DNA from: an uncultured Erysipelotrichaceae bacterium
GTDB taxonomy: Bacteria; Bacillota_I; Bacilli_A; RF39; UBA660
Assembly (NCBI GenBank): GCA_902794075.1
Contig: CADBGE010000001.1
Coordinates: 76,603 to 140,602, forward strand
Direction of reading: 5' to 3'
DNA length: 64,000 nt
The notes beneath the pieces are model-generated. The model saw nothing but the letters and a program-made list of their open reading frames with translations, made no database searches and was not told the DNA's origin. The stretch's first letter is position 1, and the number at the start of each line of letters is the position of its first letter. This document shows, piece by piece, positions 2,740 to 50,466 of this stretch. The position numbers were made by a program, and so were the translations under genes.

Positions 2740-2768
2740 AAAATAAAAACATTCCCCAGAAAATTCAA
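2740..2768 (-). promoter_or_regulatory. sigma-70-like promoter variant TTGAAT-N17-TATTTT
   Basis: Minus strand: TTGAAT (2768-2763), 17 nt, TATTTT (2745-2740). The -35 lies inside a ttccc/gggaa hairpin that follows the stop of the 2807..3544 gene. Confidence 0.4.
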
Positions 2769-2806
2769 CTTCCAGGGAACAAATATAATGCTAAAAAATA
2801 AATCAT

Positions 2807-3544
2807 TTAATCTCCTGTCCAATGACCTCCAGCACCTCTATAATATTCTTTACTTATTCTTTGGCCAAATTCGTATCTTTCTTTTTCCAATTTATCTTCA
2901 GTCTCATCATCAAATACTGGGAAAATATCAAATACAGTAGCATCCCACCTATTTGTGAATGAATTAGTTGCTACAACAATTTTTTTAAGTTTATTATATG
3001 TTGTGTCAGGATATTTTTTTAATGTGTCAATGATATCATTTAAAATATCTATCATTCGGTCTTCCTTAATGTTTGAACTATAAGAATGACCTGTTAAATC
3101 ACCATGCCAACAATACGATAATTTTAATTTATCTGGTTTAACTGATGCATCAATTGGGATAAATTTATTCCATGGATTATTGTCAAATTCATCAGAACTT
3201 TTCTTTAACTTATCGTTAAGCCATTCTTGTTGTTTTTCTGGAGATCTTTTAAGAATTCCTGGTTTACTTTCCTTATATTTTAACCAATGTTCCTCAGCTT
3301 TCTTTAATGCAGCTTCTTTTCTTGCTTGACGTTTATCTGTTTGCGTTTTATTATATTCTTCTATAATAGAAACACGAGCAATTAAGAATTTTGACCATGA
3401 TTCCAAGATACCTTCATTTATCTTTTTCTTGATTTTTTCTGATGAATCATTTATATTAATATCTATAGAATTAATGCATATTCTACCGAAATTTTCAATA
3501 TAATCTTTTTTCCATTCATTTATATATTGAACAAGTGATTTCAT
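2807..3544 (-). CDS. hypothetical protein with MKSL-type N-terminal leader
   Basis: 245 aa. Starts MKSLVQYINE. No recognisable domain. Confidence 0.7.
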   Translation of the reverse strand: MKSLVQYINEWKKDYIENFGRICINSIDININDSSEKIKKKINEGILESWSKFLIARVSIIEEYNKTQTDKRQARKEAALKKAEEHWLKYKESKPGILKRSPEKQQEWLNDKLKKSSDEFDNNPWNKFIPIDASVKPDKLKLSYCWHGDLTGHSYSSNIKEDRMIDILNDIIDTLKKYPDTTYNKLKKIVVATNSFTNRWDATVFDIFPVFDDETEDKLEKERYEFGQRISKEYYRGAGGHWTGD

Positions 3545-3804: not shown

Positions 3805-4134
3805 TTATTTTTTAATTTCTTCTAATCCTTCATACTCACCAGTCTTCATACAACAGTTCTTATACTTTTTTCCACTGCCACATGGACACATGTCATTACG
3901 ACCAATTTTTTCATACTTACGAACAATTTGTTTTGGGCGCCTTGCCATTAGTGCACGTATTTTAGCAAGCTGATCTCCAGTAATTACACTATCCTCAAAT
4001 TGTTTCATTTCTTCTGAAACTTCTTCGTCTGTCTTATCTGTCAAATCAACCTCTAAATTACGAAGAGCATTTTGAGCGTCTTCAACAGCAGAACTTTGTT
4101 CTAGCATTTTAATGTTATTTTCTTCCATAGTCAT
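3805..4134 (-). CDS. SEC-C motif metal-binding protein
   Basis: 109 aa. Acidic N-terminal half and a C-terminal [13 protein letters not shown] (SEC-C zinc motif). Lies immediately downstream of the clpX-like gene. Confidence 0.65.
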
Positions 4135-4138
4135 AAAA

Positions 4139-5332
4139 TTATTTATTTAGAATTTTTTCTATATGCTTCTTTGTTATAGTTACTTTCTTATTTTTATATT
4201 CAGCACATCTGAACATATAATCCTCCATGATTTTTTCCATAATTCCTCGAAGACCTCTTGCACCAACTTCAGTATCTAAAGCTTTATCAACAATATAATA
4301 TAATGCATCCTTTTTGAAGTCAATTTCTATATCATCAAGTTTAAGCATCGTCTTATATTGTTTTATAAGTGCATTTCTAGGCCGTGTAAGTACATCATAT
4401 AGTTGTTCACGAGTAAGTTCTGTAGTATGTGCAATAATTGGAAGACGACCAATAATTTCAGGAATTAGTCCAAAACTTCTTAAATCTTGTGTGTTAACAT
4501 CATCCAATGGATCATCATTATTTTTGTCATTATCTCTTCCTGTGACAAAACCGACTGCATGTTTGTTATGTCTTCTCATTATTTCTTCTTCAATTCCAAC
4601 AAATGCACCACTACATATAAATAAAATATTTGTTGTGTCAATTGGAACAAGCTTTTGTTCAGGATGAATTCTTCCACCATTAGGAGGACAGTTGACAATA
4701 GTTCCTTCAAGCATCTTTAGTAATGCCTGCTGAACACCTTCTCCAGAAACATCACGCGTAATACTCGTGTTTCCCTTTTTAGTTCCAATCTTATCTATTT
4801 CATCTATGAACACGATACCTTGTTCTGCTTTCTTTATGTCATAATCCGATGCCTGCAGAAGTTTGCTAAGTACAGATTCAACATCTTCTCCAACATATCC
4901 GCTTTGTGTTAATGAAGTAGCATCAGCAATCACAAAAGGCACATCAATCATTCTTGCAATAGTCTTACACAATAATGTCTTTCCACTTCCTGACGGTCCC
5001 AATAGAACAATATTTGATTTCTCAAGCTCACATTCATTCTTATCATAATTTGAGAACAATCTCTTATAGTGATTATATACTGCAACACTTAATGTCTTCT
5101 TAGCGGAATCTTGTCCAATGACATATTGGTTTAGGAACTCATATATCTCTTGAGGATTAGGAAAACTTTTATTTTCTACGTTTGATGAATTAGGTTCAAA
5201 TTTAATGTTCCGTGCTAATGACAGACATGAATCACACATATATGTCTTACCGTTAAGTCCAACAACGGCGTTCATATCTTCTGTAATGGGTTTACCACAG
5301 AAACTACAAATATTTTGTATATTACTTTTCAT
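4139..5332 (-). CDS. clpX: ClpX-like AAA+ unfoldase
   Basis: 397 aa. N-terminal C4 zinc ribbon (CSFCGK...CDSC), Walker A GPSGSGKT, Walker [10 protein letters not shown], pore-1 GYVG and an IGF-loop-like VGF tripeptide. Confidence 0.85.
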
Positions 5333-5918
5333 TCACAAAATCCAATACTTCATTTAATATATCATTCTTATTGCGAAACTTGTTGCCATCATTAACAACG
5401 ATTAACTTCTTATTTAATTGTGATTTTTCAAATATTTCATAGAACAAAGAAGTTTCTTTCATAATGTTGTTTTCATCATTTGAAATTGAATTACCATCAT
5501 CATTTTTTAGTGCCAACTCTGTAGAATTATTAATCAATTGAACATAATATACATTTTCTAATTTTGTGTAAAATTTACTATTGTCATTAATGAACAACTT
5601 AATGTCTTGTTCAATGCCATCAATCATATTAAATACATCATTCTTTTGGCGATTTCTATATAATGTTCCATAAACATATTCACCATACCAGGCTCTATTA
5701 AATATAATTAAATCACATACACCATAGTAATTTTCATTATATAATTTATTTATGTAACTATTAAACAATGCATCCTGATTTAAGTTTTGTTCATCAAGTG
5801 TTTTTCCTACAGGCTTTCCACAATGAATAATTAATGTATGACTACATAAATTTTTTAATTCATTTATCAAAGTATCCTTACCTGTACGGTCTGTTCCTTC
5901 AATTATAATTATTTTCAT
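5322..5918 (-). CDS. P-loop kinase, thymidylate/deoxynucleoside-kinase-like fold
   Basis: 198 aa. MKIIIIEGTDRTGKDT fits the IEGxDxxGK(S/T)T P-loop of the dTMP/dNK family. Substrate unknown. Lies directly downstream of the RNA ligase gene. Confidence 0.55.
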   Translation of the reverse strand: MKIIIIEGTDRTGKDTLINELKNLCSHTLIIHCGKPVGKTLDEQNLNQDALFNSYINKLYNENYYGVCDLIIFNRAWYGEYVYGTLYRNRQKNDVFNMIDGIEQDIKLFINDNSKFYTKLENVYYVQLINNSTELALKNDDGNSISNDENNIMKETSLFYEIFEKSQLNKKLIVVNDGNKFRNKNDILNEVLDFVNEK

Positions 5919-6011: not shown

Positions 6012-7418
6012 TTAGCTATTGTCCTCTACGTTTTCGACACCCTTGTCCAATTCTTTCTGTTCACGGTTCATAAATGCAAATGTCTTAAGTTTCCAGGCAT
6101 GTGCAATTCCGTCTTCTTTCTTGATGACAATACCTTCTTGAGGTACATTATTTGTACAGTCAGGACTATTCATCTCCATGAAAAATTTCTCATCATCAGC
6201 AAGTGCAGAAATAAAGTTATCCCCATAATTTTCATCATTGAAAATATTAGGATAAAGATCGTATGCATACCCATAATAGAACTCATTAACAGGCTTAAGT
6301 CCAACTGTTTTACAATAATCCTGAACTTCCTTTGCACTATACTCATGAAAAACTCCATCAATATTTGTAGAAGTAATACGATATACAACAACCTTAAAGT
6401 TTACACCTTCCTTATAATCATCAACTGCGCGAGGAGGTCTACATCCATAATCATATCCCTTTTGGATATATTTACCATTAGGAAGATACCCAACAATTTC
6501 TGCATAAATTGTCATTCCTTTCTGTAGATATGGCTTCAAATAATCAAAACCATATTTCCAAACATCAACACTATAAAATCCTTCACCGGTTGTAGGATTA
6601 ATGTTTGCATTTTTAATGACAGACCTTGAACTATAGATATAGTCATAATCAGGATATGAATCTACATCAGTGTATACAGGCAATGTTCCGCCAAACTTAG
6701 TATATAACCAAGTTAGAATTTTGTCCCATTTCTTTCTTGGTTGTCTACACAATACTCGAGACGCAATCAAACTTGTACCATGCCACTTACTTGTGATACT
6801 AATAAGATCTGTTGGCTTAATTACCCAAGGCTCCTTACGAATCAAAATCGTATCATAATGGAACTTAAACTGTCCTTCAATCAACTTATTAAACCTCTTA
6901 AGCTTATTGTTACGATATTCTCCAGTATTGGTTATTGAAGTTACATTGGTCTGAACAACATATTTACGATTAATCCAAAATGTCTTTCCGTTATGTTCAA
7001 CTTCATCAAATTCAGTATTTATCTCAATGTCGGTAAGTTCAACATTTACAGAATCAAGAATCCAATCTTTAAGATCATCAATAGGCAACAAAAATCCTTC
7101 AGAAGCAAATCCGCCAAGCTTAATTGCTTTTACTCGTCCATTCTTATCAAAGAAGCCCTTCTTCTCAGGATTCCTATTCAATGCACTATTAGAATATAAT
7201 GACAAATACTCAAGAAGTGACGGATTTATTTGTGACATTGCAGGAAAATACACATAAATGCCTTTCTTCATGTCCGTTGAAACAATAATATTAAATCCAT
7301 CTACAACAGCAACCTGAAGCTTAGTGTATTCAGGATTTGGATGCTTTGCGAAATTATTAATCTCAACAATTTTTGCGAGATAATTTACATTTGCTCCCTT
7401 TGATTTTTGTAACTTCAT
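6012..7418 (-). CDS. RNA ligase (Rnl2 / DraRnl-like nucleotidyltransferase)
   Basis: 468 aa. Motif I SKWHGTS (compare T4 Rnl2 EKIHGTN), motif IV-like YAEIVGY and motif V-like EGIVIKKE...WKLK. An extra N-terminal domain is present. Confidence 0.65.
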   Translation of the reverse strand: MKLQKSKGANVNYLAKIVEINNFAKHPNPEYTKLQVAVVDGFNIIVSTDMKKGIYVYFPAMSQINPSLLEYLSLYSNSALNRNPEKKGFFDKNGRVKAIKLGGFASEGFLLPIDDLKDWILDSVNVELTDIEINTEFDEVEHNGKTFWINRKYVVQTNVTSITNTGEYRNNKLKRFNKLIEGQFKFHYDTILIRKEPWVIKPTDLISITSKWHGTSLIASRVLCRQPRKKWDKILTWLYTKFGGTLPVYTDVDSYPDYDYIYSSRSVIKNANINPTTGEGFYSVDVWKYGFDYLKPYLQKGMTIYAEIVGYLPNGKYIQKGYDYGCRPPRAVDDYKEGVNFKVVVYRITSTNIDGVFHEYSAKEVQDYCKTVGLKPVNEFYYGYAYDLYPNIFNDENYGDNFISALADDEKFFMEMNSPDCTNNVPQEGIVIKKEDGIAHAWKLKTFAFMNREQKELDKGVENVEDNS

Positions 7419-8626: not shown

Positions 8627-10051
8627 TCATTTAAATTCTTTTTCAAATTTCTTTTTCAGTTCATCAAGATCATTCAAATACATTTGTTGAATTGTTGTCT
8701 TTTTTATATAATCAAGTTCCTTTTTAATTTCTTCGTTTTCTTTAAGTAATTCGTCTCTTTCCTCAATAGTACATTTGCTCATAGGTGTTCCAATCAGATA
8801 CATTGGCAACTTGTGACCATCCATATCCACCTTGATGTCAACCTTAGAACGATTACGAATCTTCAACTTTCCCTTGCATACAAGTTCAATAAATTTTACC
8901 AATAGTGAGTTCTTTTCATATTTGTCCTCAAGTATCTTAACTAATCTTGACTTACGATCATTATATATATTTAATCTATACTTTACAAAATATTCTATAA
9001 GTTGCTGTGGTGTCTGAAAATGTCGGATCTTGTTATTTTCATCAAGCACCCACAGCAGGTCGTCAGGAACAACCTTCGTTAGTTTAAATAAATTGCATAT
9101 ATGTGAGTTAACTGTCTTACGCTTTCCTAATTTTGCTAATTCTCCCTTATTAAATTGAATGATATATTTAATATCCGAACCTTCACTAAAATTCTTCCAA
9201 TCTTTAATTCTATTCTTTTCTATTAATTTATTCAAATGCTTTTCAAATCCTTCAAAGTCTGTGTCATAAGGAAACATTGTAATTTCTACTCTATCTCTTT
9301 TCAAATCAAGTGTGAATTTTCCATCACTAACCCATTTTCCTTCATCATTTGTTCTCCAAAGTTTATTGTCATATTCTCTGATGTATGGATAAAGTACAAA
9401 GCCGTTTGTTGATTCATCTTTACATTTATTCTTGATGAATTCAATACAACAGTCGACGACATCCTTTGGGTTATATGACATTGTAGCAAACTTATATCCA
9501 GGCGCCATGCCTTCCTGACGATTCAGAATCACTGTAGGAATGATTGGTAAATAATTCTCTGGTTCAACATATTGTCCCTCATCAAAGATTTGGTTTGTCA
9601 ATTCAATATCTGTCTTCCATAAGTCACTAAATTCAGATAACTTAACATAAAGATAACGAGGTGCAGAAACCGACTTAGGAGACCTTAATGAACCAACCTG
9701 TCCATCACATTCAAGAGGATTGCAATTAAATTTAAATGGTTGTGAAAGAGTTATGATTGTCCCATTAAGACTTGAATCTCCATGAGGATAGAGCGACAAG
9801 TTCAATGTATCGCCTGACAGATTAAGAAGTTTCTTGTTTCCACCATTCTTAAGACCTCCATTGAATGCCGCGTGCATAATCTTTCTTGCACCAGTCTTAA
9901 GTCCGTCAATGAGAGAAGGAAGCGCACGATTTGCAAGAACATAAAAAGTATATTCCTTATATTCCTTATTTAAGAATTCTGTAATAGTTCTCTCTACCTC
10001 AGCATAATTGTTACTAAGATCTATATCAACAATTTTATCCTTCTTGTTCAT
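8627..10051 (-). CDS. type II DNA topoisomerase, breakage-reunion subunit (T4 gp52-like / GyrA N-terminal-like)
   Basis: 474 aa. Has the LPSLIDGLKTGARK motif and the SAPRYLY catalytic-tyrosine context. Its size and its separation from the ATPase subunit match T4-type topo II. Confidence 0.8.
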   Translation of the reverse strand: MNKKDKIVDIDLSNNYAEVERTITEFLNKEYKEYTFYVLANRALPSLIDGLKTGARKIMHAAFNGGLKNGGNKKLLNLSGDTLNLSLYPHGDSSLNGTIITLSQPFKFNCNPLECDGQVGSLRSPKSVSAPRYLYVKLSEFSDLWKTDIELTNQIFDEGQYVEPENYLPIIPTVILNRQEGMAPGYKFATMSYNPKDVVDCCIEFIKNKCKDESTNGFVLYPYIREYDNKLWRTNDEGKWVSDGKFTLDLKRDRVEITMFPYDTDFEGFEKHLNKLIEKNRIKDWKNFSEGSDIKYIIQFNKGELAKLGKRKTVNSHICNLFKLTKVVPDDLLWVLDENNKIRHFQTPQQLIEYFVKYRLNIYNDRKSRLVKILEDKYEKNSLLVKFIELVCKGKLKIRNRSKVDIKVDMDGHKLPMYLIGTPMSKCTIEERDELLKENEEIKKELDYIKKTTIQQMYLNDLDELKKKFEKEFK

Positions 10052-10474: not shown

Positions 10475-11221
10475 TCATCCGTTGTACCAATCTGGTGTGT
10501 TTGTTATACCTGAACCGTCAAACATTCGTCCTGTAGCATAAATACTAGATAAATCCCATTTAGATAAATCTCCAACTGATTTTAAGTTTGTACAACAACG
10601 AAACATGGCTGAAATATCTTCAGCATTAGATACATCCCATTTAGATAAATCTCCAACTGATTTTAACTCTTCACAGAAATCAAACATACCGTACATATAT
10701 CTAACTTTTAATACTTTCCATTTTGATAAATCACCTACTGATTCTAATTTATAACAGTTACGAAACATAGTTGAGATATCTTCAACACCTGATACATCCC
10801 AATCAGATAAATCTCCAACTGATTTTAAATTAATGCATTTTTCAAACATTCTAGTTAAAACTTCAGCATTTTGTGTATCCCAATTTGATAAGTCCACAGA
10901 TTTTAATTTTGTGCAGTTTAAAAACATATTGTGCATATTTTTAATGTTTGATACATCCCAGCCAGATACATCTATGTATTCAAAGTTAGTTCCTTGAAAT
11001 ACTCCATAACTACGTTTTTCATCATAAAATGTAGTCATTCCACTTACATCTATATCATTAAAGTAAACAGGTTTCTGTTCTGTTCCAGGTCCTAACTTAT
11101 TGTATTTATCTTCTATAATCTTTCTTAACTCATCAAATGTTTTAGGAAAATATATATATGCGTTTTTATAGTTCTTATTAATGACAAGTTTTTCAGATAA
11201 ATAGTTAACAAGTGACTTCAT
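10475..11221 (-). CDS. DUF285 / BspA-type leucine-rich repeat protein with MKSL leader
   Basis: 248 aa. Starts MKSLVNYLSEKLVINKNYK, followed by about 6 repeats of the SVGDLSxWDVSxxxDxSxMFxxCxxLK type. Confidence 0.8.
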   Translation of the reverse strand: MKSLVNYLSEKLVINKNYKNAYIYFPKTFDELRKIIEDKYNKLGPGTEQKPVYFNDIDVSGMTTFYDEKRSYGVFQGTNFEYIDVSGWDVSNIKNMHNMFLNCTKLKSVDLSNWDTQNAEVLTRMFEKCINLKSVGDLSDWDVSGVEDISTMFRNCYKLESVGDLSKWKVLKVRYMYGMFDFCEELKSVGDLSKWDVSNAEDISAMFRCCTNLKSVGDLSKWDLSSIYATGRMFDGSGITNTPDWYNG

Positions 11222-43275: not shown

Positions 43276-43537
43276 AATCTTAAAATGTTTAATTTAAATT
43301 AGTTAATATATAATATTTATGTTTATTGTAATTATAATATAGAAAAGTAAAACTAAAAAATTTCAATATTTTAGGATTCTTTTTTCATATGTTCCATTAT
43401 TTTTTACTATGTTGATACCGTTAAACGGATGATTAGATGAATGTCCTTGAAGATCGTAATAGATCATATCATCATTATCATTATGATTAATCATATTATC
43501 ATGAATATTGTTTACACAAGTTAATTTTTAATTTTAG

Positions 43538-43609
43538 TTGCCTCGCCAGGATTCGAACCTGAACCAACAGCTCCAAAAACTGTTGTGCTTACCGTTACAC
43601 CATGAGGCA
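43538..43609 (-). tRNA. tRNA-Gln(TTG)
   Basis: 72 nt. Acceptor tgcctca/cgaggca, D arm gtgt-aacggtaa-gcac, anticodon arm acagt-ttTTGga-gctgt, T arm tcagg-ttcgaat-cctgg. Confidence 0.85.
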
Positions 43610-43620
43610 AAATAAAAAAT

Positions 43621-43815
43621 GTGAGTAGATTTACGAGCTACGGACTGTGAAGGATTTATGAACTTATCAACCTTCTCTGTTGCGTTGCCTCTTATGGCCT
43701 CTCACGATAACCAACACGTTTCATCAAGCGAGGATATATTCTCCAGTCTACATACAATAATTACACCGGTTCATTATCATACTTACACTGATCCTACTCA
43801 GTGGTCTATACTCAC
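43621..43815 (-). ncRNA. structured non-coding module (about 195 nt) closed by a terminal helix
   Basis: No credible ORF here. gtgagta (43621-43627) pairs with tactcac (43809-43815), and internal hairpins are present. Lies between the GIY-YIG gene and tRNA-Gln. Strand inferred from context. Confidence 0.3.
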
Positions 43816-43919
43816 ATTTTATATTTTCCATAATATATTCAAAGTGATGGTTAAACATCATCGCAAATTCACACGGATTAATACGATATCCTTTTAAGAC
43901 AAGTTGCTATATTATGGAT

Positions 43920-45035
43920 TTATTTTTTAAATGGTTTTCCAAATTTCCAACCATTATTTAAATATTCTTCAAATTTTTCTTTCGGTAATCTTATTACTTC
44001 ATCATCTTTATACATCCATTTTCTACCTTTATGTGGACTTGTTCCTTTTTGTTTCCAATGTTTATTTTTGTTTACTCCAACAAATTCTCCAGATATATAT
44101 CGTTTATCTGTTTTATCAACAAAAAATGTATTACCATTATTATCTTTAACGGCTACTTTATTTTTCATATATTCATAATCATTATTTCTAAATTTGATAA
44201 TTTCACCGGTTTTAAATCTTGGATCATTTTTATTAACTAATCCTAATTTATTTCCATTCTTGTCTATGGCAGGTATTTTGTTTTTGTAATATGATACAAA
44301 TTCACCAGATATATATCGTTCGTCTGTTTTATCAACAAAAAATACATTACCATTATTATCTTCAACAAGGATATGTGTTTTATAAAAATTACTATAATCT
44401 TTTTGTGACCCAATTTTTCGTTCAATTTTATTTTCTGTTTTTTCAGTTCGACCAATTTTATATCCTTTATCTAAATAATACTGTAATTTATCTTTTTGAA
44501 TAAATTTTGTTTCATCATCATTATGAATCCAAACTTTATTACTTGATGCAATTTTATGTTTTGTAGTGTCATTAACTTTAAAACCTTTGTTCCATCCATT
44601 AGATAAATATATTTCTAAATCTTCTCGTTTTATTCTTTTATTTATATAAACATTATTTTCAATTTTATAAATACAAACAGTATTATATTGAGAATTTTTT
44701 TCTCCTTTTTGTTTTTCAGAATTAATTTGTCCAATATGTTTTAACAGTTCTTCATCTAAATAATAACCACCAGGAACCATATTATAACAATTATTATCAT
44801 TAACTAATTCTTCTGTTACAATAGATTTTTCAAGTTGACAAAGCTCATTCCAATCATTACAGTATTGTATAATTTCTTTAGTAAAATTTTCTATACCGTA
44901 TTTTTTATAAGCCGCATGTAATCGTTTTCCAGAACCCATGTACCCATCATCTAAATTTGATGTTTTGTGAATTCCGTAATAAAAATGATTATTTACATTA
45001 TTTGTTATTTTATATAAATAAAAATATGTTTTCAT
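43920..45035 (-). CDS. GIY-YIG homing endonuclease (Seg-like)
   Basis: 371 aa. N-terminus YLYKITNNVNNHFYYGIHKT...GYMGSGKRLHAAYKKYGIENF is a GIY-YIG module. The C-terminal half is repetitive (FFVDKTDxRYISGEFV). Embedded in the tRNA array. Confidence 0.8.
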   Translation of the reverse strand: MKTYFYLYKITNNVNNHFYYGIHKTSNLDDGYMGSGKRLHAAYKKYGIENFTKEIIQYCNDWNELCQLEKSIVTEELVNDNNCYNMVPGGYYLDEELLKHIGQINSEKQKGEKNSQYNTVCIYKIENNVYINKRIKREDLEIYLSNGWNKGFKVNDTTKHKIASSNKVWIHNDDETKFIQKDKLQYYLDKGYKIGRTEKTENKIERKIGSQKDYSNFYKTHILVEDNNGNVFFVDKTDERYISGEFVSYYKNKIPAIDKNGNKLGLVNKNDPRFKTGEIIKFRNNDYEYMKNKVAVKDNNGNTFFVDKTDKRYISGEFVGVNKNKHWKQKGTSPHKGRKWMYKDDEVIRLPKEKFEEYLNNGWKFGKPFKK

Positions 45036-45095
45036 AATTAAAATCCATTAACCATTTATATATATAAAAATAAAATAATTAATGAAATAATTTTG

Positions 45096-45181
45096 TACCG
45101 GGAACAGGAATTGCACCTGCACTTCCTTCACAGGAAAACAGATTTTAAGTCTGTCGCGTCTACTTGTTTCGCCATCCCGGC
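45096..45181 (-). tRNA. tRNA-Leu(TAA), class II, non-canonical D and T loops
   Basis: 86 nt. Acceptor gccggga/tcccggt, anticodon arm acaga-ctTAAaa-tctgt, 17-nt variable arm. T loop is tgcaatt and the D loop aaacaagtaga lacks GG. Confidence 0.75.
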
Positions 45182-45195
45182 AGAGAATATTTTAG

Positions 45196-45267
45196 AGCCG
45201 CTACTCCGAATCGAACGGAGATCTCATGATTACAAGTCAAGCGTAATAACCTTTATACTATAGCGGC
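45196..45267 (-). tRNA. tRNA-Thr(TGT)
   Basis: 72 nt. Perfect acceptor gccgcta/tagcggc, anticodon arm cttga-ctTGTaa-tcatg (one U-U mismatch), T arm ctccg-ttcgatt-cggag. Confidence 0.75.
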
Positions 45268-45302
45268 AATTTATATAATTAATATAATAATGTTTTTATA
45301 AT

Positions 45303-45857
45303 TTATTCAAAGCATTCACTATATTTTTCAATATCTTCTACAGAAAAATATTTCTTATATTTCTCAAGAATTTTCAGTCCATGCTCATGAATATACTCAA
45401 GTAATGGATTTGAGTTCTTCAGTCCTCCTGATTCAAAATTATAAAAATATATTATTGCATCAAGATTATCAATAAAGTCACCTCTAACATCAATATCATT
45501 ACTAAATAGCCAATCAACAAAATCCTCATATAATTTATGATAACCATTCCAAGAACATATATTTCTATTCTTTCTATCTATATGTTTTGATTGATCCTTC
45601 ATTCTAATAAGATTTATTTCGTCATAACACAAAATTTCATCAAGTGCTATTTCAAAATTAAATTTAGAAAAAGGTCTTTTATCATTACTAAGATAAATGT
45701 GTATATGAGGTCTTTGCCTATCTCCGGCATTAGTTCCATGAACAGTAATATAATAATCTATTTTATTTAGTACAGGATATCCTATACTTGCCATTTCTAC
45801 TACATAATCCCATTCAGGATTGAACTGTTCATCCACGTATGTATTTAGATGTTTCAT
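45303..45857 (-). CDS. hypothetical protein with leader-like N-terminus
   Basis: 184 aa. Starts MKHLNTYVDE. Located between tRNA sub-clusters. Confidence 0.65.
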   Translation of the reverse strand: MKHLNTYVDEQFNPEWDYVVEMASIGYPVLNKIDYYITVHGTNAGDRQRPHIHIYLSNDKRPFSKFNFEIALDEILCYDEINLIRMKDQSKHIDRKNRNICSWNGYHKLYEDFVDWLFSNDIDVRGDFIDNLDAIIYFYNFESGGLKNSNPLLEYIHEHGLKILEKYKKYFSVEDIEKYSECFE

Positions 45858-45872
45858 TTTTATTATATTTTG

Positions 45873-45947
45873 TGGTCCCTGACGGCGCCGCCCCGTCCAC
45901 CCCGAAATTAAAAGTTTCGTGCTCTACTAATCATGAGCTAAGGAACC
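45873..45947 (-). tRNA. tRNA-Lys(TTT) with aberrant T loop
   Basis: 75 nt. Acceptor ggttcct/agggacc, anticodon arm cgaaa-ctTTTaa-tttcg. The T arm is gacgg-GGCGGCG-ccgtc (no TTC) and the D loop atgattagta lacks GG. Confidence 0.65.
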
Positions 45948-45953
45948 TATTTG

Positions 45954-46026
45954 AGCAGATGACGTGATTCGAACACGCAACTTTCAGATTGGAAATCTGA
46001 CGCTCTGCCAATTGAGTTACATCTGC
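45954..46026 (-). tRNA. tRNA-Trp(CCA)
   Basis: 73 nt. Acceptor gcagatg/catctgc, anticodon arm tcaga-ttCCAaa-tctga, T arm gcgtg-ttcgaat-cacgt. Confidence 0.85.
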
Positions 46027-46031
46027 AGCTG

Positions 46032-46115
46032 TGGGAGCGGGTCGACTCGAACGACCAGTCCAATTAAGGAATGGATTTACAGTCCATGCGGCTTCCAGTT
46101 ACCGGTTACGCTCCC
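46032..46115 (-). tRNA. tRNA-Tyr(GTA), class II
   Basis: 84 nt. Acceptor gggagcg/cgctccc, anticodon arm atgga-ctGTAaa-tccat, long variable arm, T arm ggtcg-ttcgagt-cgacc. Confidence 0.85.
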
Positions 46116-46130
46116 AATATTAAAGATTAG

Positions 46131-46296
46131 TCAGGTAAGATGGAATTGAACCACCACTAATATAAATTGATATTTTTAGATTTAGTACAATTAACATAAA
46201 CTACCAAATTCATATTACCTTTTATCCTTCCTGTACACACTATAGATAAAAACCTCCCATACCATCATGGGTGTGCTACCGTTACACCATTACCTG
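46131..46296 (-). ncRNA. tRNA-like gene with about 95-nt internal insertion, anticodon unassigned
   Basis: Perfect acceptor caggtaa/ttacctg, D arm gtgt-aacggta-gcac, T arm ggtgg-ttcaatt-ccatc. The anticodon-position hairpin cccat-gatggt-atggg has a 6-nt loop, and about 95 nt (two hairpins) lie between the variable-loop position and the T arm. Confidence 0.4.
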
Positions 46297-46301
46297 ATAT
46301 A

Positions 46302-46631
46302 TTATTCTTTAACGTCTTTAGACATAATAACTTCATCAGGATAAAATTCTAAAAATGTTTTAAGTACTTCATTATAAAATATATAAGTAACTAAGCCTTT
46401 TCTTGATGAAGTAATTGTTTTACTTAATGTGAAGTAATACTTTTCCGATTTGCCAATCATAGTCTTTCCAAGATCCCATACAATAATTGGTAAAACATTT
46501 CTATCGATCATATCAGAAATCTTTTTAATTATTTCATCAGATTTCATATTAGGTAAAGTACCATATATATGAATGATATTAGAACAATTAGATTTTGATT
46601 TTGTCTTAAATAATGAACTAAGAATATTCAT
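46302..46631 (-). CDS. hypothetical protein
   Basis: The track ORF 46302..46667 starts at a GTG that overlaps tRNA-Pro. The first ATG (MNILSSLFK...) is at 46631. Confidence 0.5.
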   Translation of the reverse strand: MNILSSLFKTKSKSNCSNIIHIYGTLPNMKSDEIIKKISDMIDRNVLPIIVWDLGKTMIGKSEKYYFTLSKTITSSRKGLVTYIFYNEVLKTFLEFYPDEVIMSKDVKE

Positions 46632-46652
46632 GATTAATTCTTTAAATATTTT

Positions 46653-46728
46653 TGGTAGGGTAAACACGGCTCGAACGTGCGACCTCTACATCCCAAATGT
46701 AGCATTCTACCTACTGAACTATTACCCT
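46653..46728 (-). tRNA. tRNA-Pro(TGG), CCA encoded
   Basis: 76 nt. Acceptor agggtaa/ttaccct, anticodon arm ctaca-ttTGGga-tgtag, T arm gcacg-ttcgagc-cgtgt, 3' ACCA. Confidence 0.85.
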
Positions 46729-46839
46729 TGGCGCCGCCTTACTTATATTTTTACATTCAGTATATATCCTGAACACTGGGGCCGTGCGGCATGTTCTTTA
46801 TGAAGCTTCTCCCCATCTATTGGCCGAATAGAGTATGTG

Positions 46840-46914
46840 CGGTGCGTACGGGACTCGAACCCGTGACCTCCTGCGTGACAGACAGGCATTCCAAACCAAC
46901 TGAACTAACGCACC
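46840..46914 (-). tRNA. tRNA-Asp(GTC)
   Basis: 75 nt. Acceptor ggtgcgt/acgcacc, anticodon arm cctgt-ctGTCac-gcagg, T arm acggg-ttcgagt-cccgt. Confidence 0.85.
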
Positions 46915-46920
46915 AAAATA

Positions 46921-46988
46921 TGTTTGATTTATCATCGTGCTACCGTTACACTAAGGAGTCGAACCTAATCTTATGATATAATCAAACA
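46921..46988 (-). ncRNA. permuted tRNA-like element: long closing helix + T arm + D arm, no acceptor stem
   Basis: Minus-strand RNA: tgtttgattatatcat-aaga-[ttagg ttcgact cctta]-[gtgt aacggta gcac]-g-atgataaatcaaaca. The ends pair over about 15 bp. The D-arm sequence is identical to that of element 46131..46296. Confidence 0.35.
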
Positions 46989-47019
46989 CCTTAAAAATTC
47001 ACGTGAACTTTAATTTTTG

Positions 47020-47088
47020 TGGGAAACAGAGGACTCGAACCTCCTAATAGATTGTGATTATCTGCAGTTTCAAAATCTAATACCACCC
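47020..47088 (-). ncRNA. tRNA-like element (canonical T arm, weak acceptor, no D arm)
   Basis: The 3' part is ggagg-ttcgagt-cctct-gtttccc-a. An upstream 6-bp stem tagatt/aatcta encloses 20 nt beginning ttGAAac (Phe-like). The 5' strand gggtggt pairs only with wobbles. Confidence 0.3.
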
Positions 47089-47153
47089 AATTTTAAATTC
47101 AATTATGTACACTCGTTGAATACAAATTTTGTGTAGAATCCCATATTTAAAAG

Positions 47154-47227
47154 TTGCGTGGGGTCAGATTCGAACTGACGACCTTCTGCTTATGAGACAG
47201 ACGAGCTGACCACTGCTCCACCCCGCA
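47154..47227 (-). tRNA. tRNA-Met(CAT) (fMet-like body, bulged acceptor)
   Basis: 74 nt. TGCGGGGTGGAGCAGTGGTCAGCTCG... closely resembles the E. coli tRNA-fMet 5' half. Anticodon arm tctgt-ctCATaa-gcaga, T arm gtcag-ttcgaat-ctgac. The acceptor 3' strand ccc-a-cgca has one bulged A. Confidence 0.65.
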
Positions 47228-47245
47228 ATATATTTATCTATTTAG

Positions 47246-47332
47246 ATGCCACCGAAGGAATCGAACCTCCACCCGAATCACCAGGGATGTACCTGCGGGT
47301 TCCCATGTGTATGCAGCTAACATACGGTGGCA
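47246..47332 (-). ncRNA. tRNA-like element, 87 nt, anticodon unassigned
   Basis: Acceptor tgccacc/ggtggca and T arm ggagg-ttcgatt-ccttc are canonical. The remainder (gtatg-ttagctg-catac hairpin, acccg...cgggt helix) does not fit a D/anticodon arm layout. Confidence 0.35.
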
Positions 47333-47380
47333 ATATAAAAAATTGAAATCCCTATAGGTAAATGTAAATCATCATTCATA

Positions 47381-47450
47381 ATCAATAGATGGGATTCGAA
47401 CCCATAATCTCTGAACGTTACAGCGGTAATACCGTTTGCCTAACTAATGA
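47381..47450 (-). ncRNA. tRNA-like element, 70 nt, anticodon unassigned, embedded in a longer closing helix
   Basis: Acceptor tcattag/ctattga (one U-U mismatch) and T arm atggg-ttcgaat-cccat. No 5+7+5 anticodon arm found. Flanks pair: ttgaaatc (47343-47350) with gatttcaa (47473-47480), and aatgtaaat with atttacatt. Confidence 0.35.
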
Positions 47451-47490
47451 CTGGTGAACAATCATTTACATTGATTTCAATTTTTATTTT

Positions 47491-47610
47491 AAAGTTGAAA
47501 TTCTTGCAAGATTGAATGCTTATCTCGGGATGATCTTCTGTCATCTCTGAGGTTGATTTTCCCCAGAACCATTATCAGTGTTCTACATCCGCATTCAAAA
47601 TTTCAACTTT
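47491..47610 (-). ncRNA. structured spacer module closed by a 20-bp interrupted helix
   Basis: aaagttgaaatt..ttgaatgc (47491-47520) pairs with gcattcaa-aatttcaacttt (47591-47610). Two internal hairpins: 7-bp tctgggg/cctcaga, and gatga/tcatc with a 7-nt loop. Confidence 0.3.
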
Positions 47611-47614
47611 ATTG

Positions 47615-47689
47615 TACTGCCAACGGGACTCGAACCCGTAATCTCCGCCGTGAAAGGGCGACGTCCTAAACCAATTAGACGATGGCAGC
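47615..47689 (-). tRNA. tRNA-Glu(TTC)
   Basis: 75 nt. Acceptor gctgcca/tggcagt (G1-U72), anticodon arm tcgcc-ctTTCac-ggcgg, T arm acggg-ttcgagt-cccgt. Confidence 0.8.
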
Positions 47690-47919
47690 ATATTGAGATT
47701 TCACAGTAATCTCAAAACTGTATACGTGAGCAATTTGATATGGAGTGTACTGCTCATTGATTCATGTTGTGATCTCAACAGTTATCTCTCCTGAATGGAA
47801 CATTATCCGGAATAATTCCAAACCATCGGACCTTACTCAGATTTGAATTACATCAGGGATCTCTCAGGAAAATTTCCGAGGCTGATTTGTATCTGCAATA
47901 AAACCAGCAAACATTTTTG

Positions 47920-47991
47920 CGCTTGTGGAGAATTACGATATCCCGACCTAGTGGTTAACAGCCACTCGCTCTACCTCTGAGCTACACAAGC
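47920..47991 (-). tRNA. tRNA-Asn(GTT) with unusual T loop
   Basis: 72 nt. Perfect acceptor gcttgtg/cacaagc, anticodon arm agtgg-ctGTTaa-ccact. T arm gggat-atcgtaa-ttctc (A at position 54, 53-61 unpaired). Confidence 0.7.
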
Positions 47992-48000
47992 ATATTTCAT

Positions 48001-48103
48001 AATCAACCGAACTTATCGTCACTTCATCGATAACATAGCACTTTGTGCCTCATTTATCATTACAAACAGAAGTTAGACTAAACAAAACGTTTAACTGTTG
48101 ATT
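48001..48103 (-). ncRNA. structured spacer module closed by a 7-bp helix
   Basis: aatcaac (48001-48007) pairs with gttgatt (48097-48103). Internal hairpin ttatcg/cgataa. Lies between tRNA-Asn and tRNA-Val. Confidence 0.25.
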
Positions 48104-48114
48104 ACGAAGTTTTG

Positions 48115-48189
48115 TGGGCAATGTTGGATTCGAACCAACGACCCCTTGCTTGTAAGGCAAGTGCTCTGAACCAGCTGAGCTAATTCCCC
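48115..48189 (-). tRNA. tRNA-Val(TAC)
   Basis: 75 nt. Acceptor ggggaat/attgccc (one G-G mismatch), anticodon arm cttgc-ctTACaa-gcaag, T arm gttgg-ttcgaat-ccaac. Confidence 0.8.
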
Positions 48190-48276
48190 AGAAAAGTGGT
48201 GTCCTAACAATTAAACGACAAATTTTAAAAAATTTGATTGAGTTCATACCCCAATATCTCCACCAAAATAATTTAC

Positions 48277-48385
48277 GAAACTGACATATTGAAATTCTGT
48301 GCAGTAAACCATGAATTGTAATTTAGTACGTTCTACTAAGTGCACCAATTATTCTAAGGTTAATTTCAACTTAGGTATCAGTTTC
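48277..48385 (-). ncRNA. structured spacer module closed by an 8-bp helix
   Basis: gaaactga (48277-48284) pairs with tcagtttc (48378-48385). A nested 8-bp helix ttgaaatt/aatttcaa and the hairpin tagta-cgttc-tacta are also present. Confidence 0.3.
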
Positions 48386-48386
48386 T

Positions 48387-48504
48387 AAATGAGAATAAAC
48401 AATACTTACGAATTGCCACCAATAAGCATCGTATAAAGAAATAAGGGAGTCTATAAGGAGGCAATTTTCTCTGCTTATACTTGCCTTTCATTCTATTCTC
48501 ATTT
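48387..48504 (-). ncRNA. structured spacer module closed by a 10-bp helix, pseudoknot-like interior
   Basis: aaatgagaat (48387-48396) pairs with attctcattt (48495-48504). Inside, aattgcc...ataagca...ggcaatt...tgcttat are interleaved 7-bp complements. Confidence 0.3.
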
Positions 48505-48506
48505 TG

Positions 48507-48595
48507 CGGAAGCTGAGGGATTCGAACCCCCGGAACCTTGTTAAGGCTCGCCGGTTTTCAAGACCGGTGCAATCGACCAACTCTGCCAAACTTCC
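48507..48595 (-). tRNA. tRNA-Ser(TGA), class II
   Basis: 89 nt. Acceptor ggaagtt/agcttcc, anticodon arm ccggt-ctTGAaa-accgg, long variable arm, T arm ggggg-ttcgaat-ccctc. Close to E. coli tRNA-Ser(UGA). Confidence 0.85.
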
Positions 48596-48911
48596 GTAAT
48601 ATTAAATAATATAAAAATAAGTGTGTTGTTAAACCAAAAAATCCATAGTGTTCTTATGAACGTATGTGATCTTGACCAGAACAACTAAGGCCATTATATC
48701 ACATTACTCAGGTTCCGCCTGAACTGTTCCTGCAACCTCTTTCACTATTTGTCATGGATTTGATTTCAGCTACTTGAGACAGTTCTGATACTTTCAGACA
48801 TAGTTACAATTTACTCTTTAAAAGATGGACACTTTCAATCCCACTTCCTTATTTATATTATCGTATTCAGTATTTCCAACATGTCAAAGAACTTTGTTTT
48901 GTTGTTTTTAT
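48596..48911 (-). ncRNA. promoter-proximal leader RNA upstream of tRNA-Ser (paralogue of 50467..50720)
   Basis: No credible ORF here. Shares the 15-mer ccaacatgtcaaaga (48876-48890), ttgtcatggattt (48749-48761) and gcaacctc (48732-48739), in the same order, with the 50.5-50.7 kb segment. Preceded by a consensus promoter. Confidence 0.35.
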
Positions 48912-48917
48912 ATAATC

Positions 48918-48946
48918 AATATATAAATGATTATATGAAAATTCAA
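48918..48946 (-). promoter_or_regulatory. sigma-70-like promoter TTGAAT-N17-TATATT
   Basis: Minus strand: TTGAAT (48946-48941), 17 nt, TATATT (48923-48918). Drives the leader RNA / tRNA-Ser sub-cluster. Confidence 0.55.
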
Positions 48947-49004
48947 ACTTTTTTAATTTTTTGCACCCGAAGTGAAACTCGTCATCTCAGCAAAATATTT
49001 TAAG

Positions 49005-49079
49005 TGGACCCAGAGGGTCATGATCCCCCGACCTTGACATTATGAGTGTCCTGCTCTATACCAACTGAGCTATGGGTCC
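49005..49079 (-). tRNA. tRNA with CAT anticodon (Met or Ile2), unusual T loop
   Basis: 75 nt. Perfect acceptor ggaccca/tgggtcc, anticodon arm ggaca-ctCATaa-tgtca (27-43 mismatch), T arm ggggg-atcatga-ccctc (A at position 54). Confidence 0.65.
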
Positions 49080-49960
49080 TATTTCATTTTTCTACCTTTT
49101 ATCCAACCGTTGTTAATATAATCATTAAGTTCTTCTTTTTTAATTTTTATATTAATTGGTTTATTATTTTCATCAAATTTATAAATCCAGCATGTCCCGT
49201 ATTGTGAATTATTTTTACCCTTACCGTGATTTATTAATTTATATGTTTCTTTTTGTTTTTTAATTGATTCAGGTTTATGTTTTCTTCCAGTCCATATACA
49301 TTTTAATTCTCCAGATAAATATCTTGGATCATCAACTGAAACAGAATAATAATTTCCGTTTTTATCTTTTACAGATACTTTATTTTTTCCTAAAGCAATA
49401 TATTCACCAGATATATATCTTGGATCATCAACTGAAACAGAATAATAATTTCCATTTTTATCTTTTACTGTTATTTTGTTTTTTGTTAAAGCTTCATAAA
49501 TTTCTTTGTTATATTCTTCCTTTTTTATCATCAAATGTTCTCCTGTTGATTTTATTTTTACAGGAATTAAACCTTTTGTTGATGGTGTGTATTCACCGCT
49601 CATATATTTTGGATCATTTTTTGAACATCTAAAATAGTTTCCGTCTTTATCTTTTACAGGCACAGAACCATACGTATTCCATCCTTTTCCGCCACATTGA
49701 ATATTATAACATTCAGGATCATGAACTAAATCTTCTGTAACAATTTCAGATTCATATTGATATGCCTCATTTATAGTATTAAAATATTTTAATATTTCTT
49801 TACTAAAGTTTTCAATACCATATTTCTTATATGCATATTTTAATCTTGTGCCTGAACCCATATATCCATCATCTAAATTATCTGTACAATGTACACCATA
49901 ATAAAAATGATTATTTATATTATTTGTTATTTTATAGAAATAATTGTATTTTCTTTTCAT
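49079..49960 (-). CDS. GIY-YIG homing endonuclease (Seg-like), second copy
   Basis: The track ORF starts at TTG 49969. The ATG at 49960 gives MKRKYNYFYKITNNINNHFYYGVHCT...GYMGSG...YGIENF. The TAG stop abuts the tRNA 5' end. C-terminal repeats KDKNGNYYSVSVDDPRY(I/L)SGE. Confidence 0.8.
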   Translation of the reverse strand: MKRKYNYFYKITNNINNHFYYGVHCTDNLDDGYMGSGTRLKYAYKKYGIENFSKEILKYFNTINEAYQYESEIVTEDLVHDPECYNIQCGGKGWNTYGSVPVKDKDGNYFRCSKNDPKYMSGEYTPSTKGLIPVKIKSTGEHLMIKKEEYNKEIYEALTKNKITVKDKNGNYYSVSVDDPRYISGEYIALGKNKVSVKDKNGNYYSVSVDDPRYLSGELKCIWTGRKHKPESIKKQKETYKLINHGKGKNNSQYGTCWIYKFDENNKPINIKIKKEELNDYINNGWIKGRKMK

Positions 49961-50032
49961 AATGTTCAATGATATTTTATATATATTTATATTGAACTAT
50001 ATAATTAAAAATAATAAATTATTTCTAATTAG

Positions 50033-50106
50033 TAGGGATGATGGGTACTGCCCCCACTATCTCGAATTTATAAGATTCGCGCTTCTACTGTCTAAGCTAC
50101 ATCCCA
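50033..50106 (-). tRNA. tRNA-Ile(TAT) with aberrant T loop
   Basis: 74 nt. Anticodon arm cgaat-ctTATaa-attcg, acceptor gggatg/catccc (6 bp plus a terminal U-U). T arm gtggg-GGCAGTA-cccat, and the D loop agacagtag lacks GG. Confidence 0.6.
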
Positions 50107-50113
50107 ATGTTTG

Positions 50114-50187
50114 TGGAGCCATGGGGAGTCGAACCCCAGACCTTCTGCGTGCAAAGCAGACGCTCTACCAAACTGAGCTATGACCCC
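50114..50187 (-). tRNA. tRNA-Ala(TGC)
   Basis: 74 nt. Acceptor ggggtca/tggctcc with G3:U70, anticodon arm tctgc-ttTGCac-gcaga, T arm tgggg-ttcgact-cccca. Confidence 0.85.
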
Positions 50188-50190
50188 ATA

Positions 50191-50382
50191 AAAGTAAAAT
50201 GTTCTACACGCTCTGACTTTCACAGATACCCTCTAAAGATTTTAAAATCTCCCTTTAGCAAGGATTCCTTACCAAATATACAGATGCAACTCTGCCCCTT
50301 GCTTCCGCTCCATCACAGGCATACTTTATCAGCAGACGGTAAGATCTCTAATAAATTTCCTGTACCTCGAACTATTTACTTT
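50191..50382 (-). ncRNA. structured spacer module (about 190 nt) closed by an 8-bp helix
   Basis: aaagtaaa (50191-50198) pairs with tttacttt (50375-50382). Internal palindrome agattttaaaatct flanked by ctaaag/ctttag. Lies between tRNA-Leu(TAG) and tRNA-Ala. Confidence 0.3.
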
Positions 50383-50385
50383 TTG

Positions 50386-50466
50386 TACCCCATCTCCGAC
50401 TCGAACGGAGACCCAGTAAAGGATGGCTTCTAAGGCCACTGACTATACCAATTCGTCTAATGGGGT
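50386..50466 (-). tRNA. tRNA-Leu(TAG), class II
   Basis: 81 nt. Acceptor accccat/atggggt, anticodon arm gtggc-ctTAGaa-gccat, 12-nt variable arm, T arm ctccg-ttcgagt-cggag. Confidence 0.8.

Follow-up and report, generated by a model that had tools for sequence, protein, structure and literature searches.

Does a phage that supplies its own tagging RNA also supply the means of degrading what has been tagged? The question is raised by a stretch of 64,000 nucleotides (C1:76603-140602; "the window" below denotes the whole of this stretch) of contig CADBGE010000001.1 (C1), in which a gene for a homologue of the unfoldase ClpX is followed directly by one for a small protein with a SEC-C zinc motif, and which also carries a gene for a transfer-messenger RNA (tmRNA, the ssrA RNA). 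C1 belongs to the bin of a Bacilli metagenome-assembled genome (MAG); it is 400,076 bp long with a guanine-plus-cytosine (GC) content of 29.3%, and its first 99 bases recur at its end, so that it represents a complete circular assembly, that of a T4-like phage from gut or rumen that is related to the Lak phages. Judged by its sequence, the ClpX is genuine, of the Bacteroidales type and probably active. Its pairing with the SEC-C gene is conserved but young, and is confined to one clade.

The ClpX homologue had been recognized in the original prediction by an N-terminal zinc ribbon, a GYVG pore loop and a VGF tripeptide at the position of the ClpP-docking IGF loop, and both profile scores and alignments bear this out. 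The protein scores 544.1 bits against NF003745 (cut-off 359), which places it above the equivalog cut-off, and 518.9 bits against TIGR00382 (cut-off 370.75), and solved ClpX chains from the PDB align with it from end to end (E 2e-126). The Walker A, Walker B and sensor-2 motifs are all present together with GYVG. In an alignment of 17 sequences the zinc-ribbon residues C9, C12, C33 and C36, the pore-2 segment, the Arg and His of the RKH loop, the docking residue G261 and the GARGLR sensor-2 motif are invariant. On such features we regard the identity and competence of the protein as nearly certain.

Examination of the residues that read the ssrA tag points in the same direction. In E. coli ClpX, residues Y153, V154, T199, V202, R228 and H230 are critical for tag binding (Fei et al. 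2020, PMC7652416) and bind the Ala-Ala-COO- end of the tag. All six are matched in the phage protein, by Y146, V147, T192, V195, R221 and H223 at a constant offset of 7, and the phage ClpX can therefore plausibly read Ala-Ala degrons. A modification is evident in the RKH loop, where RIH stands in place of RKH in every member of the phage clade, in ClpX sequences down to ~58% identity (alignment A2, rows 1-13). This RIH loop is a new element of the clade; RKH is kept in the bacterial rows and in P0154 and P0155 of the same alignment, in Lak-B1 and in the outgroup phages G031 and G032. The loop residues that contact the tag in E. coli are the Arg and the His (PMC7652416), both of which are present in RIH. 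At the docking tripeptide all members of the clade, at identities down to ~60%, read VGF or VGY, and VGF occurs also in the ClpX of Duncaniella (Bacteroidales); the pattern supports the view that the tripeptide is maintained by selection across the clade. The ClpX loci from IMG/VR were recovered by alignment-based searches, a single-sequence search there having given none.

The spacing between the clpX stop codon and the SEC-C gene is exactly 4 nucleotides (TTTT on the coding strand). The same arrangement, with a SEC-C gene directly downstream of clpX, occurs at four further loci (L007, L008, L050 and L051), whose ClpX proteins are 60-68% identical to that of the window. ClpX and the SEC-C protein are the only proteins common to all five loci, both flanks having been replaced, and the loci span a clade of the ClpX tree with support of 100/98. 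Such a conserved pairing suggests a functional link, and the clade-wide pair looks to be a new element.

The SEC-C protein itself scores 38.6 bits against PF02810 (cut-off 20.4) and heads a graded series of homologues, from 99% down to ~33% identity, which start at its second ATG (residue 3). In their alignment (A1) the metal ligands C83, C85, C94 and C95 are invariant, and the conserved parts comprise an N-terminal IKMLEQ followed by an acidic stretch, a helix ITGDQLAxLRAL, and the RK(Y/F) motif region followed by GxYEGL. The protein had been described as small, acidic and placed 4 nucleotides downstream of clpX; its position and its motif stand, and the acidity does not hold for the protein overall (22 D/E vs 19 K/R), being limited to the N-terminal 60 residues (16 vs 6), while the C-terminal half is basic. 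The AlphaFold2 model is confident for the metal-binding domain only, with a floppy N-terminus and no searchable fold. Scores against YecA (37.7 vs 149) and YchJ (16.8 vs 120) lie far below the respective cut-offs, and only the C-terminal motif region matches.

The proposal that the SEC-C protein is an adaptor for ClpX draws on the conservation of the pair within the one clade, and several observations weigh against it. In a sister lineage (P0152), the ClpX of which is 59% identical, another gene occupies the SEC-C position, and SEC-C homologues at 33-55% identity lie beside DHH and NrdD genes on other large phage contigs. No SEC-C motif was found in seven other ClpX-bearing huge phages, Lak, phage G and Atu_ph07 among them, and no clpX within 6 kb of the best SEC-C relatives, either in 80 IMG/VR loci or in 80 bacterial loci. 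Eight of ten large SEC-C-bearing IMG/VR records have no ClpX (two of the ten are rated at least 90% complete), and the closest outgroups, G031 and G032, encode ClpX at 12 kb and 186 kb, respectively, from SEC-C. Genes are tightly packed in general, so that the 4-nucleotide gap alone means little. No literature linking the SEC-C motif with ClpX was found in the paper library searched. We also considered a joint capture of the pair from bacteria, and rejected it for want of any adjacency in the 80 genome and 80 IMG/VR loci. A search with PF04386, in answer to the suggestion that an SspB-like gene be sought, revealed no SspB in the phage, the best match in the whole bin (E 0.7) being on another contig.

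On balance, a working partnership between the SEC-C protein and ClpX seems rather unlikely. The competing explanation, which we consider a serious one at somewhat below an even chance, is that the protein is unrelated to ClpX and is a free-standing mimic of the SecA tail, acting on ribosomes or SecB in the host, in which case its position after clpX would simply be inherited gene order. Its motif is near-identical to the C-terminal metal-binding domain of SecA and to YchJ-C (PDB matches), and over residues 3-98 it resembles the tail region of a SecA model of Bacteroidetes type; the metal-binding domain of E. coli SecA binds ribosomes and SecB (PMC6620043; bioRxiv 10.1101/613315). The homologues beside DHH and NrdD genes rather than clpX, the SEC-C-bearing phage records devoid of ClpX and the adjacency of 0/160 loci all accord with such a mimic. 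What it fails to account for is that clpX and SEC-C alone are conserved clade-wide while both flanks change (five loci, ClpX to ~60%), and that the two closest outgroup phages with the same SEC-C type also encode ClpX.

If ClpX is to degrade proteins, it requires a peptidase, and the statement that no clpP is seen in the window proved correct: none was found within its 64 kb. Extended to the whole contig, the search gave a divided answer, in that a canonical clpP was not found and one non-canonical open reading frame (ORF) of the ClpP family was found outside the window. This was the single match of a six-frame PF00574 search of the whole bin (C1:57583-58179(+), 198 residues; L001:1315-1911), and it precedes the window by 18.4 kb, at a distance of 22.6 kb from clpX. 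The ORF product scores 114 bits vs 20.2 for Pfam CLP_protease, and the triad residues of human ClpP are matched in the alignment by its own Ser, His and Asp, S104 and H129 being invariant and D180 nearly so among 22 homologues. Its AlphaFold2 model (predicted local distance difference test, pLDDT, 93.3) has the ClpP fold with the handle helix, and the top 50 Foldseek matches are all ClpP, with target-normalised template-modelling (TM) scores of 0.75-0.86 for the best folds and a root-mean-square deviation of ~2 Å for the best-fitting chains. The gene starts 6 nucleotides after one for an Mre11-like (gp47-type) protein and is followed by an ORF of unassigned function; its orthologues are found in Lak-B1, LR756504, the IMG/VR phage G032 and Lak-A1, where the gene adjoins a DNA polymerase fragment. 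A role as prohead protease was rejected, given the score of 80.4 vs 120 for NF045542, the wrong neighbourhood and the presence of a gp21-like protease elsewhere (PF03420 match at C1:158807-159148).

All seven of the other ClpX-bearing huge phages checked possess a ClpP-family gene, which is full-length and canonical in six. The short form accompanies a canonical ClpP in Lak-A1, Lak-B1 and LR756504; G032 (376 kb, 98% complete) is equipped like C1, with ClpX and the short form only, ~14 kb apart. The loss of canonical ClpP, with the short form shared with Lak being kept, is a new element of these genomes.

We consider it likely that the phage ClpX uses a ClpP partner. That it could plug into host ClpP, as originally predicted, is plausible because the complete phage genome lacks a canonical clpP and the VGF tripeptide is kept; the presence of a ClpP-family gene in the phage itself qualifies this part of the prediction, and any use of host ClpP hinges on the assignment of the host, which we infer below. 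The canonical ClpP of the host is our tentative choice, at just under an even chance. A self-contained phage protease, in which ClpX would dock on the short ClpP-like protein and not on host ClpP, is unlikely in our estimate. The two genes share one complete genome, the combination of ClpX with the short form alone recurs in G032, the triad and the fold with its handle helix are intact, and the protein is not the prohead protease, a gp21-like one being encoded elsewhere. The protein is nevertheless not an obvious ClpX partner, because its N-terminus is incomplete, its pocket positions are altered and its scores are low. The N-terminal axial loop and helix A of canonical ClpP, through which the E. 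coli enzyme touches ClpX, have no counterpart in it (the profile match begins at position 45/182), there being only ~13 residues ahead of the first core strand, and it carries an insert of ~25 residues; by alignment, K and H occupy the positions of E. coli Y60 and F82, which we take to be pocket residues, leaving the pocket only partly hydrophobic; and it falls below every NCBIfam ClpP cut-off (best 98.3 vs 228; TIGR00493 76.6 vs 308.6). Its coexistence with canonical ClpP in three phages suggests a separate job, and its neighbourhood is one of recombination and replication, after the Mre11-like gene here and after the DNA polymerase fragment in Lak-A1.

ClpX might also have no peptidase partner and serve replication, recombination or virion assembly as a chaperone that remodels proteins, a possibility to which we assign a low probability. 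Topoisomerase II genes are found close to clpX both in C1 and in Atu_ph07, Phosso, L009 and L052. E. coli ClpX alone is able to remodel the Mu transpososome. For jumbo phages, Iyer et al. proposed that ClpX serves as an unfolded-protein translocase or in virion assembly (PMC7824862), and virion proteomics of phage G detected both ClpX and ClpP (PMC12484599). Work in isolation is disfavoured by the clade-wide conservation of the docking tripeptide, unexpected in an unfoldase that never meets ClpP, and the seven other phages with their ClpP-family genes tell against it as well.

With docking on ClpP, that of the host in the first place, as the preferred reading, the tmRNA bears on the possible substrates. 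That the phage supplies its own ssrA with an ALAA tag was upheld by two programs: ARAGORN reads the tag GEDTFALAA followed by a stop, and Rfam RF00023 matches with 118.8 bits vs 47 at full length (model positions 1-374). No SmpB gene was found in the phage, and the tmRNA must therefore use that of the host. We put the chances evenly that ssrA-type tags are among the substrates of ClpX, a view based on its sequence. The proposed link between tagging and degradation is strengthened by the six conserved tag-contact residues; as a theme it was already known from phage G, Lak and others, and it is not special to this phage. The tmRNA gene lies 34 kb from clpX, the tag of phage G ends in QVA and not AA, and the co-occurrence of ClpX and tmRNA in huge phages (a tmRNA scores above the Rfam cut-off in five of the seven others checked) stands without a base-rate control, all of which counts against the link; ARAGORN made no call for the Lak tags. 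The link is reasonable, unproven, and not new as an idea. Fifteen tRNA genes are located upstream of the tmRNA (window 43537-50466, minus strand), which lies ~3.5 kb beyond the downstream end of the cluster.

The remainder of the bin comprises 128 contigs of ~25% GC, assigned to an uncultured "Bacilli bacterium" of which the bin is the species representative. A Shine-Dalgarno-like motif precedes 2% of the C1 ORFs vs 49% of those in the bin, against a background of ~10-12%. Weak use of Shine-Dalgarno sequences is a known trait of Bacteroidota. In a maximum-likelihood tree of ClpX, the sequences of the phage clade cluster with those of Lak-B1 and Duncaniella (support 100/99), and Bacilli ClpX and phage G ClpX are placed in the other half. 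From the difference in Shine-Dalgarno use and the ClpX phylogeny we infer that C1 looks mis-binned into the Bacilli MAG and that the host is rather likely a Bacteroidales bacterium. No arrays of clustered regularly interspaced short palindromic repeats (CRISPR) were found in the bin, and C1 shares with the other contigs no long DNA matches (exact matches reach 27 nucleotides at most, the one of 27 falling in a thioredoxin motif) and no proteins above 51% identity, which likewise argues for mis-binning. The closest protein match is a 468-residue RNA-ligase-like protein (window 6012-7418), whose 51%-identical homologue lies on bin contig C86, which may be another mobile element. The standard genetic code reads well on C1 (84% within ORFs of 150 residues or more), and in size, GC content and code C1 resembles the Jug phages of Bacteroides/Phocaeicola (PMC12880540), to which the phage is possibly related.

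That the co-binned Bacilli are the host, into which the phage imports an orthogonal pair of ALAA tag and ALAA-reading ClpX, is highly improbable: the co-binning, the bin's own tag ending in ...QAVAYV and the restriction of the Bacilli genus to ClpX-like proteins of 550-600 residues without zinc ribbon or RKH loop would suit it, and it is opposed by the unlike Shine-Dalgarno use, by the grouping of the phage ClpX with Bacteroidales and Lak and not Bacilli, by the lack of spacers, long DNA matches or proteins above 51% identity linking phage and bin, and by canonical ClpP in 10/18 genomes of the genus. A reading built on the bin having no other clpP or clpX was likewise set aside as unlikely, in view of the same 10/18 genomes and of a phage that does not look host-adapted.

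The Bacilli genus, which is without canonical ClpX, presents a separate observation. Its ClpX-like protein (L003:658-2418, on bin contig C15) has GYVG and an IGF-like loop, and lacks the zinc ribbon, the RKH loop and an equivalent of T199; the bin tmRNA gene, at 597-978 of its contig, encodes a tag that does not end in Ala-Ala. Tag and unfoldase may be a co-evolved, non-standard pair.

Table 1. Positions, in window coordinates, of the genes, motifs and signals of the clpX-SEC-C locus and of the tmRNA gene.
Feature	Position	Strand	Evidence
clpX, 397 residues, full-length canonical ClpX	4139..5332	-	NF003745, TIGR00382, PDB ClpX chains
N-terminal C4 zinc ribbon, C9/C12/C33/C36	5225..5308	-	PF06689, 30.6 bits vs 27
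Walker A GPSGSGKT, residues 112-119	4976..4999	-	alignment to PDB ClpX
Pore-1 loop GYVG, residues 145-148; Y146, V147 = E. coli Y153, V154	4889..4900	-	invariant in alignment
Pore-2 loop; T192, V195 = E. coli T199, V202	4736..4771	-	alignment
RKH-loop equivalent GGRIHP; R and H kept, K replaced by I	4661..4678	-	alignment A2
IGF-loop equivalent AVGFV; ClpP-docking tripeptide VGF (260-262)	4544..4558	-	aligned to Listeria ClpX IGF
SEC-C-motif protein, 109 residues	3805..4134	-	PF02810; graded homologue series
SecA-like metal-binding domain of SEC-C protein	3850..3903	-	PDB matches; invariant columns; AlphaFold2 pLDDT ~90
Conserved central helix of SEC-C protein	3943..3984	-	alignment A1; model helix 53-64
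Thymidylate-kinase-like gene, upstream of clpX	5322..5918	-	overlaps clpX start by 11 nucleotides
Terminator-like hairpin, first downstream of the clpX-SEC-C minus-strand run	2750..2781	-	terminator scan
tmRNA, tag (A)GEDTFALAA	39652..40035	-	ARAGORN; Rfam RF00023

The minus-strand run to which clpX belongs consists, in order, of the thymidylate-kinase-like ORF, clpX, the SEC-C gene, a 71-residue ORF and a 245-residue ORF (Table 1). The first of these is not kept beside clpX in the relatives. A terminator scan of the stretch showed no minus-strand terminator-like site between clpX and the hairpin at 2781-2750, the sole other site being on the plus strand (4754-4770); the promoter scan gave fewer sites than shuffled sequence and is uninformative. 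The topoisomerase II genes near clpX are located here at window 8627-10051, and similar proximity is seen in Atu_ph07, Phosso and the metagenomic relatives L009 and L052. The ORFs at window 2807-3544 and 10475-11221 both begin with an MKSLV.Y(I/L).E leader; one belongs to the minus-strand run of clpX, two genes beyond SEC-C.

These elements can be assembled into one mechanism, which as a whole we hold with a confidence poised midway between acceptance and doubt. ClpX would form an ATP-driven hexameric unfoldase, as its intact Walker A and B motifs, sensor-2, arginine-finger region and pore loops would allow, and its VGF loops would dock it on a ClpP ring. The canonical host ClpP is the likeliest ring, because no canonical clpP of the kind present in Lak, phage G and Atu_ph07 exists in this genome; the phage ClpP-like protein would be the alternative. 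The complex is predicted to bind C-terminal Ala-Ala degrons and to clear proteins bearing the (A)GEDTFALAA tag of the phage tmRNA, or those tagged by the host tmRNA, and the clearance would keep proteolytic capacity up during a long infection. The SEC-C gene, which has been inherited together with clpX through the whole clade, would also be co-transcribed with it, and its product, which combines an acidic, flexible N-terminus with a single conserved helix and a metal-binding domain like that of SecA, may assist ClpX as an adaptor or localiser; of all the steps we trust this one least. One form of it, conceived by analogy with trigger factor and ClpXP, is a ribosome tether: the metal-binding domain would attach to the host ribosome while the helix or acidic arm held the zinc ribbon of ClpX, and chains tagged by the phage tmRNA would pass directly to ClpX-ClpP in a ribosome-coupled tag-and-destroy module. 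We think such a tether very unlikely.

Huge phages carry genes for translation and ribosome rescue, and several of them carry both ClpX and ClpP. The combination of ClpX and tmRNA in huge phages is thus a known theme; the clpX-SEC-C pairing looks new, and its function is speculative. The clade provides a compact case, in which a canonical ClpX with all the ssrA-reading residues, no canonical ClpP, a SecA-tail-like partner gene and an ALAA tmRNA are found together. Should the SEC-C protein be a true adaptor or localiser, it would represent a new class of adaptor and the first function for free-standing phage SEC-C proteins; if it is not a partner, the locus would add one to the phage-borne copies of host proteostasis genes. 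In either case, a 400-kb phage contig has been flagged inside a species-representative Bacilli genome.

Among the systems that the locus resembles closely is bacterial ClpXP with ssrA, as studied in E. coli (PMC7652416), with which it shares the full ClpX architecture, an IGF-type loop and a tag ending in ALAA. It differs from it in that the genes are phage-borne, RIH replaces RKH, canonical ClpP, SspB and SmpB are missing, and clpX lies outside a tig-clpP-clpX operon. ClpX in jumbo phages is already present in the literature (PMC7824862; PMC11242549), and Al-Shayeb et al. described tmRNA and SmpB in huge phages with no mention of Clp (PMC7162821). Among phage records, L026 (CAKLQH020000005.1, 'Acinetobacter phage MD-2021a') has clpX in the tig-clpP-clpX setting of bacteria, and several very short 'Listeria/Staphylococcus/Enterococcus phage' records carry bacterial-type clpX; such records seem to be bacterial sequence that has entered the phage collection.

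The same huge-phage combination occurs in Bacillus phage G, with gp257 (ClpP-like), gp258 (ClpX-like) and a tmRNA (PMC12484599), and its authors suggest that ClpXP monitors translation. Unlike C1, phage G has a canonical clpP, which matches the full profile with 205.8 bits and immediately precedes clpX; the ClpX of phage G is of the Bacilli type, its tag ends in QVA, and it has no SEC-C gene. Lak, Atu_ph07, Phosso and AP-J-162 resemble C1 as T4-like huge phages with ClpX, often near topoisomerase II genes, and Lak also has an orthologue of the short ClpP-like protein. They differ in possessing canonical ClpP, in lacking SEC-C and, where checked (Lak-B1), in having RKH; the gene after clpX codes for initiation factor 3 (IF3) in Atu_ph07 and Phosso, and is an unrelated one of 120 residues in Lak-B1. 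In Lak-A1, Lak-A2 and Lak-C1 the clpX match is in two pieces over ~2.16 kb, vs 1.17 kb in the Lak-B phages, which suggests an internal insertion, intron or intein (L020; Lak-A1 MK250016.1 82925-85084).

For the SEC-C protein the comparison extends to several families. With the SecA tail, YecA and YchJ it shares the CxC-x8-C(C/H) motif in its GRND...GSGKKYK context and a flexible region before it, and it differs in being free-standing at 109 residues, with no SecA motor, UPF0149 or YchJ domain and with 14 extra residues after the motif. The likeness to SspB concerns the proposed role only, in which a small, partly flexible protein would bring substrates to ClpX; there is no relation in sequence. 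SPO1 Gp53 offers a precedent for a small phage protein that reprograms a Clp unfoldase; unlike the SEC-C protein as proposed, it targets the ClpC of the host, its sequence shows no relation, and no Clp ATPase is encoded by SPO1 itself. Trigger factor is of a different protein family from the SEC-C protein, and with ClpXP, in the tig-clpP-clpX synteny (PMC7804408), it provides the parallel of a ribosome-binding factor that is encoded beside clpX and cooperates with it.

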